DNA from: Candidatus Saccharimonadota bacterium
Lineage (GTDB): Bacteria; Patescibacteriota; Saccharimonadia; Saccharimonadales; Saccharimonadaceae
Reading direction: 5' to 3'
Length of the DNA: 32,000 nucleotides
NCBI GenBank assembly: GCA_002421785.1
Contig: DIRZ01000003.1
Coordinates: forward strand, 210,001 to 242,000
Shown: positions 10,470-31,920 of the stretch, piece by piece
Layout of the letters: each line of letters begins with the position of its first letter
Numbering within the stretch: position 1 is the first letter of the stretch
The notes under the pieces: model-generated
What the model saw: only the letters and a program-made list of their open reading frames with translations
Told to the model about the DNA's origin: nothing
Database searches by the model: none
Translations under genes and position numbers: made by a program

Positions 10470-10506
10470 AATTAAACGTCGGTGCGGCTGCACCGACGTT
10501 TAATTT
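10470..10506 (+). terminator. long hairpin terminator after tRNA-Gln
   Basis: aattaaacgtcggtgc-ggct-gcaccgacgtttaattt: a perfect 16-bp stem. Confidence 0.6.
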
Positions 10507-10569
10507 GGACATAACATCTATCTAGCTATTCACGCAGTGCAGCAATGGCCCACAACGCCCTGCTATACT

Positions 10570-22852: not shown

Positions 22853-22865
22853 ACGTCTTTATTTT

Positions 22866-22891
22866 AAAACACACCCAGGTGGGTGTGTTTT
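22866..22891. terminator. bidirectional terminator between tRNA-Gly(GCC) and rdgB
   Basis: aaaacacaccc-aggt-gggtgtgtttt. Confidence 0.75.
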
Positions 22892-22931
22892 GCTTTACAA
22901 ATAACCAGTCCCTGGAGACCACTCGCCCCCA

Positions 22932-26989: not shown

Positions 26990-27367
26990 CTACGGACGCT
27001 TCTCAACACGGTCTATGTCTGCATGATTCATACCATAATGATGGGCGATTTCGTGCCAGAGTGTCCGCTTGATACTTGCACGTAATGCATCGTCACTCCC
27101 CGATATCGATACAAGCGGATGCTTGAAAAGCGTAATTTTGTCAGGCAACACGAATTGATAGCCTGCCCCTCGCTGCGTTAGCGGCACGCCCTCATACAAC
27201 CCGAGCAACAAATGCCCGTGACGCACACCCTGGCGAGTGAGTTGCTCGGCGCTTGGTTCATCTGCCATTACAACGGCAACGTTATTAAGATTGCGTATGT
27301 ACTGCTGCGGCAGCTCGTTCATCGCTGCCGTAATGAGTTCATCGAATTGCTGATCGCTTAATTCCAT
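26990..27367 (-). CDS. minimal zinc metallopeptidase-like protein (COG3824 / MMP-like family)
   Basis: 125 aa with LLGLYEGVPLTQR and the HExxH-type WHEIAHHYGM. Confidence 0.7.
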   Translation of the reverse strand: MELSDQQFDELITAAMNELPQQYIRNLNNVAVVMADEPSAEQLTRQGVRHGHLLLGLYEGVPLTQRGAGYQFVLPDKITLFKHPLVSISGSDDALRASIKRTLWHEIAHHYGMNHADIDRVEKRP

Positions 27368-27762
27368 TATTCTTCCGAGAAGTCACATACAGAATAATCG
27401 TACAATTCGTCGTACGTAACTTTACCGATTAAGTCGGCTTTTGCTGCGACTTTCTGCTGACGACACTCGTCTGACTTTTGACTCGCAACTCGAGCACGCT
27501 CTTCCTTTACTTTAGCGGCCGCCTGGCGCTCTTTAGCTTGCTGTTGCTGATAATACGCATACCCGGCCGTTCCTATCATAAAAAAGACCACAAGCCCGGC
27601 AAACAGCGCATAGTGAACACGCGTCGGCCGCCAAATAAACGCAACCTTTCGGCGTTGCTTCGGTGCGGCATTCATTTTACGTTCGAGTAGTAAAGAGGTG
27701 CGCGAAAGCGCCATGGCTTTTTTGCCAATACGTCGACGATTTACCCGGTATTGCCCGGTCAT
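27367..27762 (-). CDS. single-pass membrane protein, unknown function
   Basis: I prefer the ATG at 27762, which is preceded by gaggggga. One TM (HYALFAGLVVFFMIGTAGYAY) is followed by a Q/K/A-rich helix. Its TAA shares one base with the ATG of the downstream peptidase gene (TAATG). Confidence 0.5.
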   Translation of the reverse strand: MTGQYRVNRRRIGKKAMALSRTSLLLERKMNAAPKQRRKVAFIWRPTRVHYALFAGLVVFFMIGTAGYAYYQQQQAKERQAAAKVKEERARVASQKSDECRQQKVAAKADLIGKVTYDELYDYSVCDFSEE

Positions 27763-27941
27763 TTGTCCCCCTCGCTGCATTATCATTATCATATCAATCG
27801 CAGCGACCCGAAGCAAGCCCAACCCACTGGTATCAGCGTACGAGCTAAGTCCGCATAAATAACCTGCGTCGATCGGCTGAACTATCATCGAACTACACTC
27901 TGTGTGTGCGTTGAACATCTTGGCCCAACAAACCCTCGCCC

Positions 27942-27970
27942 TTGATACTTTGCCCTAACTCTAGTAAAAT
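27942..27970 (+). promoter_or_regulatory. promoter of tRNA-Phe
   Basis: TTGATA, 17-nt spacer, TAAAAT. Confidence 0.55.
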
Positions 27971-27984
27971 ACAAATACCGTTCT

Positions 27985-28060
27985 GGCTCTTTAGCTCAGT
28001 TGGTAGAGCAGCGGCCTGAAGAGCCGCGTGTCCCCAGTTCAAGTCTGGGAGGAGCCACCA
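27985..28060 (+). tRNA. tRNA-Phe (anticodon GAA)
   Basis: Canonical cloverleaf with D-loop agttggta, anticodon loop ctGAAga, T-loop ttcaagt and an encoded CCA. Confidence 0.92.
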
Positions 28061-28066
28061 AGTAAA

Positions 28067-28091
28067 CATCTCACCGTTCGGTGGGATTTTT
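28067..28091 (+). terminator. terminator after tRNA-Phe
   Basis: atctcacc-gttc-ggtgggat followed by ttttt. Confidence 0.65.
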
Positions 28092-28188
28092 GCTATAAGT
28101 AACTTAGCCGTCGTGTGCTTAGTATCGCAAGGCCAACGACTTAGCACGATTCGCACCCAGGAGTATTGCTCATAAGCCCTCCATTCTT

Positions 28189-28197
28189 TGGTATAAT
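28189..28197 (+). promoter_or_regulatory. extended -10 promoter element of tRNA-Gly(CCC)
   Basis: tggtataat ends 10 nt before the mature 5' end. No good -35 was found. Confidence 0.5.
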
Positions 28198-28207
28198 AGT
28201 CTCTAGC

Positions 28208-28282
28208 GCGGGTATCGTATAACGGCTATTATGCTACCTTCCCAAGGTAGAAACGAGAGTTCGACTCTCTCTACCCGCACCA
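28208..28282 (+). tRNA. tRNA-Gly (anticodon CCC)
   Basis: Acceptor gcgggta/tacccgc, anticodon arm ctacc-ttCCCaa-ggtag, T-arm gagag-ttcgact-ctctc and an encoded CCA. Confidence 0.88.
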
Positions 28283-28304
28283 AATCGGAACTAGAACGGA
28301 AATT

Positions 28305-28329
28305 GTGGCGCGAATGTGCCGCTTTTTCT
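28305..28329 (+). terminator. terminator after tRNA-Gly(CCC)
   Basis: gtggcgc-gaat-gtgccgc (includes two G-U pairs) followed by tttttcttt. Confidence 0.55.
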
Positions 28330-28331
28330 TT

Positions 28332-28446
28332 AGCCGCGCCGCCTGTCCGCCGCATGAGGACACATCCCACCAGCCGTCCCCTTTGCCTTTTTCTGAGATT
28401 TCCCCCGCCGAATTTATTTTTTAGCTGAAAAGGGATTGGCGGGTGG
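28332..28446. repeat. left copy of long inverted repeat (IR-L)
   Basis: 28378-28446 is the exact reverse complement of 30678-30746 (69 bp). Imperfect similarity extends outward to about 28332. Confidence 0.9.
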
Positions 28447-28526
28447 GTGCGGTGTCGCTTTAGCGACATTGGCAGGTCGCTATATTTACTAGATATAGTG
28501 CGTATTTTCGATGTTCTTGACGGATA

Positions 28527-28535
28527 TGATATTAT
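28527..28535 (+). promoter_or_regulatory. candidate extended -10 promoter for the protease gene
   Basis: tgatattat (TGnTATTAT) lies about 60 nt upstream of the ATG. A TTGACG at 28517 is too close to serve as its -35. Confidence 0.35.
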
Positions 28536-28594
28536 GAATATGAGGTAGATGGTATCTTGTACCTTGCAAATAGCAATAATTAAAGGGAGGGCGT

Positions 28595-29212
28595 ATGAAA
28601 ATATTAAAAAATAAACTCATTGGCGCAGTCGTAGCGATAGCTGCACTGTGTTTATTCCCGACGAGTAGTGCGTTTGCAGCGACACCGCTTTTCGGATACA
28701 AATATCAAAATGGCGTAGGAAGCATAAACGCCTGGATCAATTACGGATCGGGTGTTGGATACTGGCAAACTTATATCAACGGAGCAACAAATAATTGGAT
28801 GTACACAGGCTGGGCGAACCCAGTCTATATTAATTATGTGAGCAGTAATTATGGCTCCAATTTGGATTTTCACCAGAATAATAATGCTTATTTCATGTCC
28901 CCTCCTGGTACAGTTACTCTCGCATGGACTAGGTTCTTCAATGGCAGTGGAATTGAAATCTACCCATGGAACGCAAACTGGTATTACGCAGAAGTCCATA
29001 TTAATAATGATGCCTATAGGGATCCTGGCTTTTCTAATAGCCAAGCACAAGGCACTACAACTCACGAAGTTGGTCATGCTCTCGGCCTCGCTCACTACAA
29101 TACTAATCCCTATAGCATAATGTGCCAGACGTACCCTGGCCCGGGTGTTCCGGGCAGAGCCGTACAGACCGTTCAAAAAGTTGATAATGACGCGATAAAT
29201 AGCCTGTATTAA
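28595..29212 (+). CDS. secreted matrixin-like (M10/metzincin) zinc metalloprotease
   Basis: Signal peptide MKILKNKLIGAVVAIAALCLFPTSSAFA, metzincin motif HEVGHALGLAH (HExxHxxGxxH), a candidate Met-turn SIM, and C-terminal DNDAINSLY resembling the MMP DDxxGIQxLY. Strong RBS agggaggg. Confidence 0.8.
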   Translation: MKILKNKLIGAVVAIAALCLFPTSSAFAATPLFGYKYQNGVGSINAWINYGSGVGYWQTYINGATNNWMYTGWANPVYINYVSSNYGSNLDFHQNNNAYFMSPPGTVTLAWTRFFNGSGIEIYPWNANWYYAEVHINNDAYRDPGFSNSQAQGTTTHEVGHALGLAHYNTNPYSIMCQTYPGPGVPGRAVQTVQKVDNDAINSLY

Positions 29213-29228
29213 TAAAAGGAAGGAAGTC

Positions 29229-29981
29229 ATGGACATGGTAAAAAATACTAACCAAAAAATGAGTAAGCCAAAGATATACACGCTCGCAATTGCAGTTGTG
29301 CTGGCAGTGGGTGGAGTCGCGTCATACGTGTTAATCTCATCTCATACCGCAAATGACCAGACGAATAAGAGGGGGCAAGTTGTGGTGGCGCAGCAAGGAG
29401 ATAGAGAGTATAACGCATATGCAAGCATTTCTGACAGTGACATTCAACGCACAGGAAGTGATGTTGACTTTATGTGGAAGCCTGAGCTATATCCCATTGT
29501 GGCACTAGTTCATATTGATTCGATTGATGGTGGGCGAACGTACAGTCCGGTTTATGAGCAATATGTCGCTCCGCATACCTATGGCAAGATGACTGTTAAA
29601 GAAGCATACCGTGGCGATGTAAAGCTCGGACAAGAATTGAACTACGCGCGTCTTGGTGGAACAGTGACGTATGAAGACTACTGGAAGAGTCTGAATAAAC
29701 AGCAGCAAGATAAGATTCTTCACTTGAATAATGGTAAGCAACCTGCCCACAAAAAATATGTTAAGGCCACAATCTCCGATGACATTGATATAGAGTCGGG
29801 CAAGGACTATGTCGCTTTTATTTCGCCGCAATCTTCTAAGGACGGAAAAGTTACAGAATATATCATTGGCGGATACCAGCTCGGCCTTAGAGAAGTTAAG
29901 GGATCGGGTGCCGATGCTACAGTCCTCAATAATAGCACTAAGCAGTGGGATAAACTAGATAGTGTCATAAAACAAGACTAA
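29229..29981 (+). CDS. membrane-anchored orphan protein co-transcribed with the protease
   Basis: RBS aaggaaggaag, starting 16 nt after the protease stop. N-terminal TM (IYTLAIAVVLAVGGVASYVLI) followed by a soluble domain of about 210 aa. No family recognised. Confidence 0.6.
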   Translation: MDMVKNTNQKMSKPKIYTLAIAVVLAVGGVASYVLISSHTANDQTNKRGQVVVAQQGDREYNAYASISDSDIQRTGSDVDFMWKPELYPIVALVHIDSIDGGRTYSPVYEQYVAPHTYGKMTVKEAYRGDVKLGQELNYARLGGTVTYEDYWKSLNKQQQDKILHLNNGKQPAHKKYVKATISDDIDIESGKDYVAFISPQSSKDGKVTEYIIGGYQLGLREVKGSGADATVLNNSTKQWDKLDSVIKQD

Positions 29982-30024
29982 CTGCTTCCTATCTATCTAA
30001 GAGTAGCGTAGTAGATAAAAATAC

Positions 30025-30062
30025 AAATAGAAATGAGCGGCACTAGCCGCTCATTTCTATTT
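30025..30062. terminator. bidirectional terminator, perfect 16-bp stem
   Basis: aaatagaaatgagcgg-cactag-ccgctcatttctattt. Confidence 0.75.
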
Positions 30063-30154
30063 AGTAGCCTTAGCCTCTAATTAAAGACACTAAACTCTTG
30101 CAGTCCGTCTCTTGTCATTTTTGAGTGGAATTAATTTGTGTTGACTTCCACCCA

Positions 30155-30532
30155 CTAACATTCTTTTACGAGACCAAGCAGTTGTTCTGAGAGTTGCTCT
30201 AGTTCCTTGCTGGTAAGCTTATCAGTACTATACGGCCTGACGCCGAACGGCGTCTTCTCAGTATGATGCTCGATATTGTCAATATTGTCAATATTCTTGC
30301 CTCCTTGTAAAGCACTAATGATATTTGAAAGCGTGTCCTTGTTCTCAAGATCGGAGTTTTCGTATTTACTTAGATTCTTCTCATCTACTGAATTGTCAGT
30401 TTATTTTACTGTTTGGTTTGACTGCTTGCCTACAAAGTAGGCTGCGCCGAGGCATGTACCCACAAAAGCAGGCAGATAACGGCTCAGATTAATATAAGCT
30501 GTTGACTTGTCAATTGTTATTTTACTAGACAT
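30155..30532 (-). pseudogene. small membrane-anchored ORF interrupted by an in-frame TAA
   Basis: Minus strand: 43 codons from ATG 30532 (MSSKITIDKSTAYINLSRYLPAFVGTCLGAAYFVGKQSNQTVK), then TAA at 30403..30401. The same frame stays open for 81 more codons, to TAG at 30157..30155. Confidence 0.5.
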
Positions 30533-30677
30533 GTAGAATACTCTTTTTCGGATTATACGTTTCTATATTCCATATTATACAACTGTAGTTAATCACATAA
30601 TCTACATGATAAGGAGGCGTAGCGCGTCGGCTACGCCGACTAGAGCCGCGCTGCCTCTGCCATTTATGGCAAGCGAA

Positions 30678-30792
30678 CCACCCGCCAATCCCTTTTCAGC
30701 TAAAAAATAAATTCGGCGGGGGAAATCTCAGAAAAAGGCAAAGGGGGCGGCTGGTGGGGCGCGTCCAGCTTTGCTGGACAGACGGCGCGGCT
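30678..30792. repeat. right copy of long inverted repeat (IR-R)
   Basis: Reverse complement of IR-L. See IR-L for details. The unit 30641-30796 is itself quasi-palindromic. Confidence 0.9.
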
Positions 30793-30850
30793 CAGAGATT
30801 AGTTTTTGTGTTAAAATGGGTTCGAGCTTTGGAATACAGAGCCACCAATA

Positions 30851-30873
30851 TAAAACCCCCACCGACGTGAGGG
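30851..30873 (-). terminator. terminator downstream of DUF4342 gene
   Basis: On the minus strand: ccctcac-gtcg-gtggggg followed by tttta. Confidence 0.55.
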
Positions 30874-30900
30874 CTTTATATTATACAGCCAATAGTTAGG

Positions 30901-31146
30901 TTATTTGCGCTCGACAATGATTTTACATTCAGTCACAAGTGCAGCAATTGCCCCAATACCTGCAAGCGCAGGCACCAGCACAGCCCCAACAACCCCGACA
31001 GTCAAAGGCAACTCAACAATCGTCTCGTCATCCTTGCTTTTGATGACAATGCGTCGAACATTCCCTTCCGCGATTAGTTCTTTGACTTTTTTCAGGAGCC
31101 GTTCGCCGTCAACCACAAATTCTTCAGTATTCTTTTGTTCAGTCAT
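30901..31146 (-). CDS. DUF4342-domain protein
   Basis: 81 aa. VKELIAEGNVRRIVIKSKDDETIVELPLTVGVVGAVLVPALAGIGAIAALVTECKIIVER matches the DUF4342 pattern as I recall it. Confidence 0.65.
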   Translation of the reverse strand: MTEQKNTEEFVVDGERLLKKVKELIAEGNVRRIVIKSKDDETIVELPLTVGVVGAVLVPALAGIGAIAALVTECKIIVERK

Positions 31147-31155
31147 TATGATTCC

Positions 31156-31920
31156 TTATTTGCTAAAAATATCTTTAAGATTCGTAAGTTCGCTCGGTAG
31201 AACAACCAGCGTCTTCTGGCTCGGCTCGACAGATATTTTTTCGAGGGTTTGCAGCGTACGGATATTGATACCCCCGGGAGTTTGCGAAAGCAACTTAGCC
31301 GCTTCCGAAACAGCCTGGGCTGCTTGCTTCTCTCCCTCGGCATTAATCACGACAGCGCGTCGCTCACGCTCTGCTTCTGCCTGCTTGGCCATTGCACGCT
31401 TCATGTCTTGCGGAAGCTCGATGTTCTGGACCTTTACGTTTTCAACGTCAATACCCCACTTGTCAGTCTCGGCGTCAACGATTGTTTTAATTTGCTGCGA
31501 AATCTCTTCGCGTTTTGCAAGCAAATCATCCAGATCGACGTTTCCCGTAACATCACGTAGTGCAGCCTGTGCAAACTGACTTGTTGCATAAATATAATTA
31601 GTGGTTTCGAGTATTGCCTTTTGCGCGTCGATAACACGGAAGTAAACGACCGCATCAACACCCACCGTAACATTATCTTTTGTAATGACTTCCTGTTTTG
31701 GTACGTCAATAGGAGTGCTGCGAACATCAACGCGACTCAACTTCTGAATGACAGGAAACACGTAGCGCAGACCCGGTTCGCGAATGCCGCTAAATTTACC
31801 AAGGGTAAGCACCACGCCTCGTTCGTACTGGTTAATTACCTTAATTCCACCGAGCAAAAAGATAGCCACAAATATAAACCCAGGGAAAATAAGTGTTGCT
31901 AGCGCTACGATAATTTCCAT
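31156..31920 (-). CDS. SPFH/Band-7 (stomatin/prohibitin-like) membrane protein
   Basis: N-terminal TM, then VINQYERGVVLTLGKF...TKDNVTVGVDAVVYFRV...AEGEKQAA, typical of SPFH domains. Confidence 0.85.
   Translation of the reverse strand: MEIIVALATLIFPGFIFVAIFLLGGIKVINQYERGVVLTLGKFSGIREPGLRYVFPVIQKLSRVDVRSTPIDVPKQEVITKDNVTVGVDAVVYFRVIDAQKAILETTNYIYATSQFAQAALRDVTGNVDLDDLLAKREEISQQIKTIVDAETDKWGIDVENVKVQNIELPQDMKRAMAKQAEAERERRAVVINAEGEKQAAQAVSEAAKLLSQTPGGINIRTLQTLEKISVEPSQKTLVVLPSELTNLKDIFSK

Follow-up and report, generated by a model that had tools for sequence, protein, structure and literature searches.

The 32,000-nucleotide (nt) stretch analysed here, referred to in its entirety as the window, derives from a Candidatus Saccharimonadota bacterium (assembly GCA_002421785.1, contig DIRZ01000003.1, positions 210,001 to 242,000) and holds, beside the gene for tRNA-Gly(CCC), a small group of genes bracketed by long inverted repeats (IRs), which an earlier note on the sequence had singled out as a secreted-protease cassette that might be switchable or mobile. 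Comparison with the corresponding loci of relatives leads us to regard the segment 28283-30847 as probably a recombinase-less, decaying member of a Saccharibacteria island family that is inserted at the CCA end of tRNA genes and is apparently mobilized by a large serine recombinase (LSR). The unit delimited by the earlier note was too small, as the true unit is 28283-30847 and is site-specific at the tRNA CCA end.

The boundaries of the island are defined by clean empty sites in conspecific contigs, at least nine in number (L128-L136; L-numbers, from L001 and L002 to L137, denote the contigs or loci of relatives that were compared with the window), whose SPFH protein is 99% identical to that of the window. 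The loci of relatives were fetched with homologues of this flanking protein, and a 100% identical copy of it marks the organism as Candidatus Saccharibacteria bacterium 32-49-10. In the empty sites the tRNA gene ends with CCCGCACCA and is followed immediately by ACATAAAAACCCTCACC, which leads into the DUF4342 gene (in longer form, CTACCCGCACCA followed by ACATAAAAACCCTCACCGACGTGAGGG). In the window, by contrast, CCCGCACCA is followed by AATCGGAAC, the insert beginning AATCGG, and at the other boundary GAGCCACCA, in which the insert ends GCCACCA, is followed by ATATAAAACCCCCACC. The inserted DNA therefore corresponds to 28283-30847, a 2.6-kb island bounded by a 5-nt direct repeat, CACCA, of which the left copy is the end of the tRNA gene and the right copy (30843-30847) is the end of the island. 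The island thus displays the precise insertion, the short repeated core and the empty site in relatives that are expected of an LSR island. Beyond its right end lies a palindromic terminator that is common to tRNA-Gly(CCC) and the convergent DUF4342 gene.

The repeats on which the earlier note was built are real, and its description of them was accurate in most respects. A repeat search over the 32 kb, the scope to which the shuffles and sensitive blastn searches also apply, returned two arms of 115 nt that are 90% complementary, are separated by a spacer of 2231 nt and share a perfect 69-nt core. The 69-mer is present exactly twice (28378-28446 on the plus and 30678-30746 on the minus strand), the chance expectation for such a pair being zero in 100 shuffles, and no third copy of the arm exists in the window, either at up to three mismatches or by sensitive blastn. 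The interior is AT-rich as claimed, with windowed G+C fractions of 0.36-0.46 between the arms and about 0.48-0.55 in the flanks, and the weak similarity that had been noticed further inward reflects a diverged inner extension of the arm. The location beside tRNA-Phe and tRNA-Gly(CCC) is likewise correct; 49 nt separate the latter gene from the left arm. The left arm includes a hairpin, P1, and the boxes CCACCAGCC, CCCCCGCCGAA and GGCGGGTGG.

A complete element occupies the same tRNA gene in the relative L104, whose SPFH protein is 94% identical to that of the window. Here the DUF4342 gene is followed by a 179-nt IR, 100% identical, around a PPDK_N cargo gene, by a 105-nt IR, also 100% identical, around a gene for a 543-amino-acid (aa) LSR, and by tRNA-Gly(CCC). 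The locus L106, which encodes an SPFH protein identical to that of L104, is an empty site, so an occupied/empty polymorphism exists at a single locus. Designating the repeat around the recombinase 'a' and that around the cargo 'b', the 49 nt between tRNA-Gly(CCC) and the left arm in the window are a remnant of the recombinase module, a1, as window 28278-28339 (62 nt, including a1) and the first 62 nt of the 'a' arm of L104 show 95% identity. The terminator that now serves tRNA-Gly (28305-28322; terminator scan) lies inside a1. At the switch point L104 continues with GGCCGCGCGCAG, whereas the window continues with AGCCGCGCCGCC, the start of the inner 'b' arm, and a 7-nt microhomology, GCCGCGC, is common to both. 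Some 2 kb, extending from GCCGCGC in 'a' to GCCGCGC in 'b' and comprising the LSR module, the internal core and the outer segment of 'b', have thus been deleted, and the layout that is now found is tRNA-a1/b2-cargo-b2'-b1'-CACCA. Other members have lost the recombinase at other junctions: in L086 only a1-hairpin-a1' is left, in L002 the tRNA CACCA runs directly into a CCACC(C)A box from the interior of the arm, and L092 exhibits still another junction. On this sequence evidence the window copy appears to be a degenerate member of the LSR islands.

The wider family was recognized by scanning an arm 18-mer against one genome per species and checking the candidates by blastn. In Saccharibacteria the 18-mer typically occurs in plus/minus pairs 1.5-4.8 kb apart, while matches in other phyla are chance matches; a scan of viral contigs for the arm gave no match. 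Homologous arms, 72-91% identical to those of the window, were found by blastn in 11 Saccharibacteria loci and all 15 metagenome contigs, at positions that are not syntenic with the window and adjoin many different tRNA genes. Just outside one arm in nine loci (L019, L021, L046, L047, L056, L058, L064, L097 and L098) lies a gene of 520-550 codons that encodes an LSR with Resolvase, Recombinase and Zn_ribbon_recom domains, its best NCBIfam matches, XisF and CcrB, being weak; LSRs were found in L104 and at least 13 other members of the family. The LSR lies within the 'a' IR (92-139 nt; identity up to 100%), beside the tRNA in L046, L047, L056 and L112, and the 'b' IR (151-211 nt, up to 100%; 170-210 nt in intact members), of which the repeat in the window is a homologue, brackets the cargo. 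Neighbouring arms overlap by 4-17 nt, mostly 5-7 nt, at the core (L019, L021, L058, L064, L104, L110 and L114), and the overlap is the tRNA 3' end NCCA (GCACCA / TGGTGC). The outermost part of 'b' (56 nt) is similar to a tRNA 3' end (GGTTCGA...NCCA). On its far side the cargo module is followed immediately by a palindromic terminator, of the kind found after native tRNA genes in the window. More than ten different tRNA genes serve as targets, including those for Glu, Gly (three anticodons), Tyr, Lys, Met, Thr, Leu (two) and Val. The integrated order is thus tRNA-O-a...LSR...a'-O'-b...cargo...b'-O-terminator, where O is the NCCA core and O' its reverse complement, which by sequence corresponds to a putative attL and attR with an intact attP-like junction, in inverted orientation, between them. 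Joining the two ends of the island would create a junction of which the internal a'-core-b is the exact reverse complement. The LSR usually reads towards the tRNA, with its C-terminus encoded inside arm 'a'.

More than 3000 LSR homologues were retrieved at E <= 1e-20, and those among the best 120 whose source is named come from Saccharibacteria/Patescibacteria. Many of the closest homologues are known only from contigs of about 1.8-2.3 kb, roughly the size of the recombinase module, which suggests that assemblies routinely break at the IRs, leaving islands of this type under-assembled in metagenome-assembled genomes. De Bruijn assemblies with k=31 end at the repeat.

It could be argued that the arms are a pair of miniature inverted-repeat transposable elements (MITEs), or the ends of a composite transposon, such that two copies of a non-autonomous element flank or mobilize the DNA between them with a transposase acting in trans. 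Consistent with such a view each arm at what is termed below the R end is a unit of about 150 nt that folds into hairpins and is closed by inverted sequences of 13 nt at its termini (AGCCGCGCCGCCT...AGGCGGCGCGGCT), and palindromic scars found in some relatives resemble the nearly precise excision of IR-flanked transposons. The confirmed copies, however, are few, being restricted to the loci and contigs enumerated above, and they are always paired and never solitary in unrelated intergenic DNA; no target-site duplication surrounds the arms, the sole direct repeat being the CACCA att core of the whole island; no transposase is associated with them; and their outer ends mimic tRNA 3' ends. We therefore regard a MITE pair or composite transposon as very unlikely. 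The proposal in the earlier note of a mobile, composite or MITE-mobilized cassette holds to the extent that the cargo is mobile and linked to the adjacent tRNA, and fails, with respect to a MITE or composite element, on copy number and target-site duplication. Among the outcomes that the note had named as undoing its reading, two were not observed. The repeat is not a generic repetitive extragenic palindrome or MITE scattered in intergenic DNA, as its one to four copies per genome always occur at tRNA/LSR islands, and the cassette is not fixed at its site in all relatives, where empty sites and other cargo are found.

Indeed, tRNA-Gly(CCC) is a hypervariable hot spot, with at least seven alleles in this species or its close relatives. 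The protease cassette is present in the window, L001 and L003, and a cassette encoding NTP-transferase, NUDIX and HIT proteins in L006 and L102. In L006 and L010, which share the exact DUF4342 protein of the window, the two arms of the window stand between DUF4342 and tRNA-Gly(CCC) with these other genes inside, the homology between the window and L006 stopping at 28473 and restarting at 30611. L002, of the same species, is without an arm of the window type and carries a different 92-nt IR, 100% identical, around a methyltransferase and a ResIII helicase, with b1 retained as far as 30805. L099 and L127 are scars, comprising a palindrome of about 42 nt derived from the outer parts of both arms. 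Further alleles are L137, with a fragment of an aminoacyl-tRNA synthetase, L103 and the empty allele (L128-L136). The identical a1/b2 deletion junction occurs in the window, in L006 and in the scars, and hence the loss of the recombinase and the left core must have preceded the exchange or deletion of the cargo. This points to cargo change through the arms, probably by homologous recombination or slippage and not by site-specific recombination. The swapping of cargo between identical junctions with no recombinase in cis would also be expected if this were a plain variable region in which the arms are core-genome intergenic DNA and the cargo varies by ordinary recombination. That explanation is contradicted by the absence of the arms from empty sites of the same species and by their presence at unrelated loci, beside other tRNAs, in other species, and we consider it hardly credible.

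The suggestion that the repeats are crossover sites of a phase-variable switch, turning a secreted-protease operon on or off by inversion, has several features in its favour. Long IRs flank the unit, the IR-bracketed module adjoins a serine recombinase in relatives, and both orientations occur among genomes. Twelve of 14 cargo modules share one orientation, in which the L end (defined below) is proximal to the recombinase and tRNA, the R end being proximal in L089 and L086; similarly, 12 of 13 recombinase modules point towards the tRNA, that of L114 pointing away. Only the recombinase is flipped in L114 and only the cargo in L089, and thus the modules invert independently; the recombinase open reading frame (ORF) survives in either orientation because arm 'a' encodes its C-terminal end. 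The use of one or the other of two att copies for integration was considered as a cause of the flips and rejected on the same evidence, as one locus flips the recombinase only and the other the cargo only. It should be emphasized, however, that the window contains no recombinase, that its left arm is without the core sequence, and that all three assemblies spanning the window cassette present a single orientation. Moreover, the same arm is found at both cassette ends, the terminators lie outside both arms, and a simple scan detected no promoter-like site facing the cassette in the arms or outer flanks; inversion therefore alters no junction and no external promoter is placed for switching. Upstream of the cargo genes there are weak promoter-like matches only. 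The cassette has the flanking IRs of an inverton but not the change of promoter-gene or coding junction. The strong orientation bias (12:2 for cargo and 12:1 for the recombinase), the identical junctions, the outside terminators and the lack of a facing promoter all argue against phase variation, and a switch of this kind is, in our judgement, very improbable. The claim that the repeats are a substrate for inversion thus stands on an evolutionary time scale, both orientations existing among related elements, but there is no free switch, and a switchable protease module is not what is found.

A comparison of 37 arms revealed that both ends of a cassette are alike in 'b' up to the box GGCTGGTGG, and that the inner extensions past this box fall into two classes, L-type and R-type, the former being found in most cassettes at the end proximal to the recombinase and tRNA. 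The window cassette has an L end on the left and an R end on the right. The R end displays a closed stem, P0 (AGCCGCGCCGCCT / AGGCGGCGCGGCT), around P1, a long P2 (CCACCAGCC...GGCTGGTGG) and P4, followed by P5 and P6, whereas the L end is a truncated form of this structure. RNAalifold predicted 65 pairs for 15 R ends; 97.3% of the cells in the alignment are paired, compared with 40-52% in shifted registers. Pairs in which both partners have changed number 10, against 5.1 in shuffles (none of 500 shuffles reaches 10), and are concentrated in P1 and P4, with only a handful of independent events behind them. In the diverged arms of L104, L110, L114 and L002 every helix is kept with a different sequence. 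The arm is a conserved structured module, and we propose that it may act in cis as a cassette-end signal. A reading of the conserved blocks as uptake-signal sequences was rejected, the blocks occurring only in arms.

This structure raises the possibility that the arms are genes or leaders of a structured RNA, either a 5' leader into the cargo or a small RNA for the recombinase, an interpretation that is compatible with the island model and adds an RNA function to the repeat. The conserved multi-helix structure and its compensatory changes are consistent with this, as is the excess of G-U over A-C combinations on the inward-reading strand. In addition each arm ends outward in a tRNA-like NCCA followed by a terminator, in the fashion of a tRNA gene, and between species the arms are 81-91% identical in nucleotide sequence, compared with 58-78% for the shared cargo proteins. 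On the other side, the complete closed structure exists at the R end only, and four of the results presented next bear against the RNA as well. We consider an RNA function rather unlikely.

A number of observations weigh against the LSR-island model or the role that it assigns to the arms. Fold energy is equal on both strands, leaving the strand ambiguous. The G-U excess, 67 versus 13 on the inward strand, shrinks to about 24 versus 13 when three mostly-G-U positions are set aside, and thus tilts the balance between RNA and single-stranded or cruciform DNA without settling it. An Rfam search of 27500-31500 at a permissive threshold reported only the two tRNAs above threshold, and a simple promoter scan identified no consensus promoter in or before the arms. 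The LSR gene is absent from the window; indeed, tblastn detected no recombinase homologue anywhere in it, as the earlier note had stated for the cassette with respect to integrases, invertases and transposases, and the island thus lacks a recombinase of its own. Because of this absence the link to an LSR rests on homology with relatives. None of the best 120 LSR homologues lists the contig of the window-bearing genome as its longest, which is at most suggestive of absence. The IR of L002 is 100% identical with no recombinase at the locus, and therefore arm identity needs no LSR in cis. The standard rules of LSR action, by which attP recombines with attB only, predict no role for the internal inverted attP-like site, and the LSR-island model does not explain the origin of the double IRs. 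As a side observation, the best sub-threshold Rfam match was sroE (30606-30696, minus strand; 28 bits against a threshold of 51), which falls on the R-type extension and is regarded as a chance similarity of GC-rich hairpins.

The arrangement of the family nevertheless suggests how an LSR island of this type would behave. The LSR would integrate and excise at the CCA core, by recombination between attB, consisting of the tRNA 3' end and its terminator, and the b1'-NCCA-a1 junction, and it would recognize generic features of tRNA 3' ends, as is suggested by the tRNA-like b1 and the many tRNA targets. In the circular form two inverted copies of an att region of about 300 bp would split a recombinase arc from a cargo arc, and the island looks like such a circle integrated through one of the two copies. 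Gene conversion would keep the arms identical (most complete elements have 97-100% identity and the window 90%), and the arms would in turn promote inversion, collapse to scars and replacement of cassettes. For the window cassette inversion, deletion and replacement would now depend solely on the arms, through which homologous recombination or replication slippage could act, although an LSR acting in trans could excise it, since attL- and attR-like ends survive; such excision would join GCCACCA to AATCGGAAC in the circle and the tRNA CCA to ATATAAAA. Insertion of a cassette circle at the core was rejected as a source of the arrangement, as the two cassette cores are inverted and could not be produced by conservative recombination of a circle.

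A broader proposal, that these islands constitute an undescribed class of serine-recombinase element made of IR-bracketed modules, with a functional structured end-module and generic recognition of tRNA 3' ends, is possible and is put forward tentatively. Such an element would comprise a recombinase module and one or more cargo modules whose homogenized long IRs meet at tRNA-CCA-like cores, and the end-module of 150-190 nt would be a cis signal, serving as an accessory recombination site or in the inversion and exchange of modules. Alternatively, in these naturally competent bacteria the end-module may form a fold-back structure in incoming single-stranded DNA.

By gene content and behaviour the family belongs to the LSR genomic islands at tRNA genes, and other systems to which it can be likened share particular respects only. 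It has in common with LSR islands and prophages (phiC31/Bxb1/A118-type, SCCmec CcrAB, XisF) the Resolvase/Recombinase/zinc-ribbon domains, a short core, clean empty sites and accessory and defence cargo. It differs in that recombinase gene and cargo are each contained within long, often 100% identical IRs, in the inverted intact attP-like junction inside the element, in the CCA core and the use of more than ten tRNAs, and in the conserved structured module of 150-190 nt at the cassette ends. Adjacent segments each bounded by inverted sites are also characteristic of serine-invertase systems (Hin, Gin/Cin/Pin, Min and shufflon-like segments). Hin, like the recombinase here, is encoded inside its segment with an ORF end in the repeat that stays intact either way, and both orientations occur among genomes. 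Invertases, however, are small serine recombinases that act on 26-bp sites with a Fis enhancer and switch promoters or coding ends, in contrast with an LSR, repeats of 100-200 nt, a strong orientation bias and nothing switched. In pdif modules of Acinetobacter plasmids and in the inverted attP pairs of MiMIC, cargo likewise lies between inverted recombination-site sequences and modules appear in varied contexts, with various cargo between equivalent ends; pdif modules, however, depend on 28-bp sites and XerCD, and MiMIC is artificial, whereas the left arm in the window is without a core and exchange by an LSR is at most a plausible possibility. The yeast 2-micron plasmid resembles the circularized element in having two unique arcs, one with a recombinase, split by an IR of about 300 bp that holds the target, but its enzyme is the tyrosine recombinase Flp, it carries replication genes and it does not integrate, while the element described here is known in the integrated form only. 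Finally, the palindromic remnants of L099 and L127 and the collapse of the recombinase module in L086 resemble nearly precise excision of Tn10 and Tn5, although the repeats here are not insertion sequences. An integron gene cassette was rejected as a model, as the arms are inverted whereas attC sites are direct, and the enzyme is a serine recombinase and not an IntI tyrosine integrase.

Tycheposons, of which a minority bear an LSR, resemble the present islands in occupying tRNA-proximal hot spots in a streamlined genome, but the paper describing them reports no IR architecture (bioRxiv 10.1101/2020.12.28.424599). Searches of the literature on Saccharibacteria/Patescibacteria islands and on inverted-attP exchange yielded no description of the layout. 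An LSR element that combines recombinase and cargo modules bracketed by IRs, an inverted attP-like site in its interior, a core at the tRNA CCA and a conserved structured end-module is thus apparently undescribed.

The window copy itself is a case of ordinary decay, its protease cassette being a passenger that is stranded and in part decayed rather than a regulated switch; it is the family which it reveals that deserves attention. Saccharibacteria/Patescibacteria have tiny genomes in which few mobile elements have been characterized, and the locus illustrates a route by which accessory genes may be exchanged. A serine recombinase that targets tRNA-CCA ends would bring modular cargo (restriction-modification systems, Abi/toxin-antitoxin systems, spare aminoacyl-tRNA synthetases and secreted proteases) to hot spots that then diversify through deletion, inversion and cassette replacement. 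The apparent tolerance of the recombinase family for many different tRNA 3' ends makes it of interest for genome engineering; the arm, highly conserved and structured, constitutes a well-defined cis element; and the double-IR layout challenges the standard picture of att-site organization in serine integrases.

The features of the island and its surroundings are collected in Table 1.

Table 1. Coordinates (in the window) of the island, its cargo and the neighbouring genes.
Feature	Position	Strand	Basis and remarks
tRNA-Phe(GAA), conserved neighbour outside the island	27985..28060	+	ARAGORN; Rfam tRNA
tRNA-Gly(CCC), integration target	28208..28282	+	ARAGORN; last 5 nt CACCA (28278-28282) are the left att core
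Remnant a1 of the recombinase module, 49 nt	28283..28331	+	Start of LSR-bracketing IR arm; absent from empty sites
Left IR arm b2 (L end)	28332..28446	+	Repeat search; starts at deletion junction, microhomology GCCGCGC
L-type inner extension	28447..28476	+	Hairpin TGTCGCTTTAGCGACA, then TTGGCAGG; comparison of 37 arms
Cargo gene 1, secreted metzincin-like Zn protease, 205 aa	28595..29212	+	Partial Pfam PF00413; motif HEVGHALGLAH
Cargo gene 2, membrane-anchored protein, 250 aa	29229..29981	+	Homologues (58% aa identity) in L087 and L091
Bidirectional terminator hairpin between convergent cargo genes	30024..30063	.	Repeat search and terminator scan
Cargo gene 3, pseudogene	30070..30532	-	Three in-frame stops
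R-type inner extension	30611..30677	-	Hairpin P4, 3' strand of closing stem P0 (AGGCAGCGCGGCT), hairpins P5 and P6
Right IR arm b2 (R end)	30678..30792	-	Repeat search
Outer arm segment b1	30793..30847	-	Resembles tRNA 3' end; contains GGGTTCGAGC; ends GCCACCA
Palindromic terminator, native downstream sequence of tRNA-Gly(CCC)	30848..30882	.	Directly after tRNA CCA in empty sites
DUF4342 gene, conserved right flank	30901..31146	-	Pfam PF14242; synteny

The cassette of the window encodes three cargo genes. The first had been described as a signal-peptide matrixin-like protease, and its zinc motif and signal-like N-terminus are consistent with this; the match to Matrixin (PF00413; E 4e-7; score 30.4 bits, cut-off 24), however, is confined to the C-terminal 57 residues (149-205), and NCBIfam matches are far under their cut-offs. 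The second was correctly called a membrane-anchored orphan, as searches of Pfam, NCBIfam and PADLOC found no family match for the 250-aa product, and PADLOC assigned none of the three cargo proteins to a known defence family. The third, read previously as a convergent small ORF broken by an in-frame stop, is indeed broken, but by three such stops rather than one, and also has an altered transmembrane segment. The bidirectional terminator between the second and third genes is genuine, its stem being 17-18 bp and not 16 bp. An arm-bounded cassette in L087 encodes a homologue of the protease with 78% aa identity, and in L087 (12228-12671) and L091 (817-1260) the third gene is intact (at least 148 aa, about 69% aa identity, weak DUF4825 match), which indicates decay of the window cassette. 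Homologues of all three genes adjoin the same arm class in L087 and L091, and by sequence the protease cassette thus appears to travel as a unit.

Elsewhere in the family the cargo includes type II and type III-like restriction-modification systems, AbiU2 HEPN, SocA-type antitoxin, DUF4411+M78, PadR+BtrH, TetR, methyltransferases, hydrolases, and TyrRS/TrpRS-like and class I synthetase genes. PadR and BtrH_N/DUF4872 cargo is located at different tRNAs and in both orientations in L035, L058, L086 and L096, the nucleotide identity between L035 and L058 being about 90% and the other two having been judged from matching R-end extensions; the L058 cassette has three extra genes (an AraC-type regulator, a glyoxalase-like gene and one of unknown type). 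Arrays of more than one cargo cassette exist in L021 (1-8000), where the second cassette has a 211-nt IR that takes in the terminator hairpin on both sides, and in L097 (1-5468), where one cassette is on the recombinase side and another 5' of tRNA-Cys. The L021 recombinase has no long ORF in the ORF listing and may be a pseudogene. In L112 (5620-5740) about 110 nt are inserted into b1, past the closing stem and before the tRNA-like end, and the core and the structured module may thus stand at different distances from each other.

Native tRNA genes in the window (Gln, Gly-GCC and Phe) are followed, 0-10 nt past the encoded CCA, by near-perfect palindromic terminators (10470-10510, 22853-22900 and 28061-28090) whose A/T-rich flanks are also complementary, and the same design abuts the far end of every island. 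Upstream of Zincin_1, the ORF at 27367-27918 on the minus strand measures 183 aa from its first ATG compared with 131 aa in public assemblies, and its N-terminal 52 codons may stay untranslated. A second variable region lies on the opposite side of the tRNA pair in L002 (15680-17100) and L104 (12519-14765). L002 has a type IV pilin-like (N_methyl) gene and a 229-aa ORF between tRNA-Phe and the homologue of this 183-aa ORF, its tRNA region being 81% identical to the window and its flanks 97-99%, and L104 has a 339-aa ORF between tRNA-Gly and tRNA-Phe together with an N_methyl gene.

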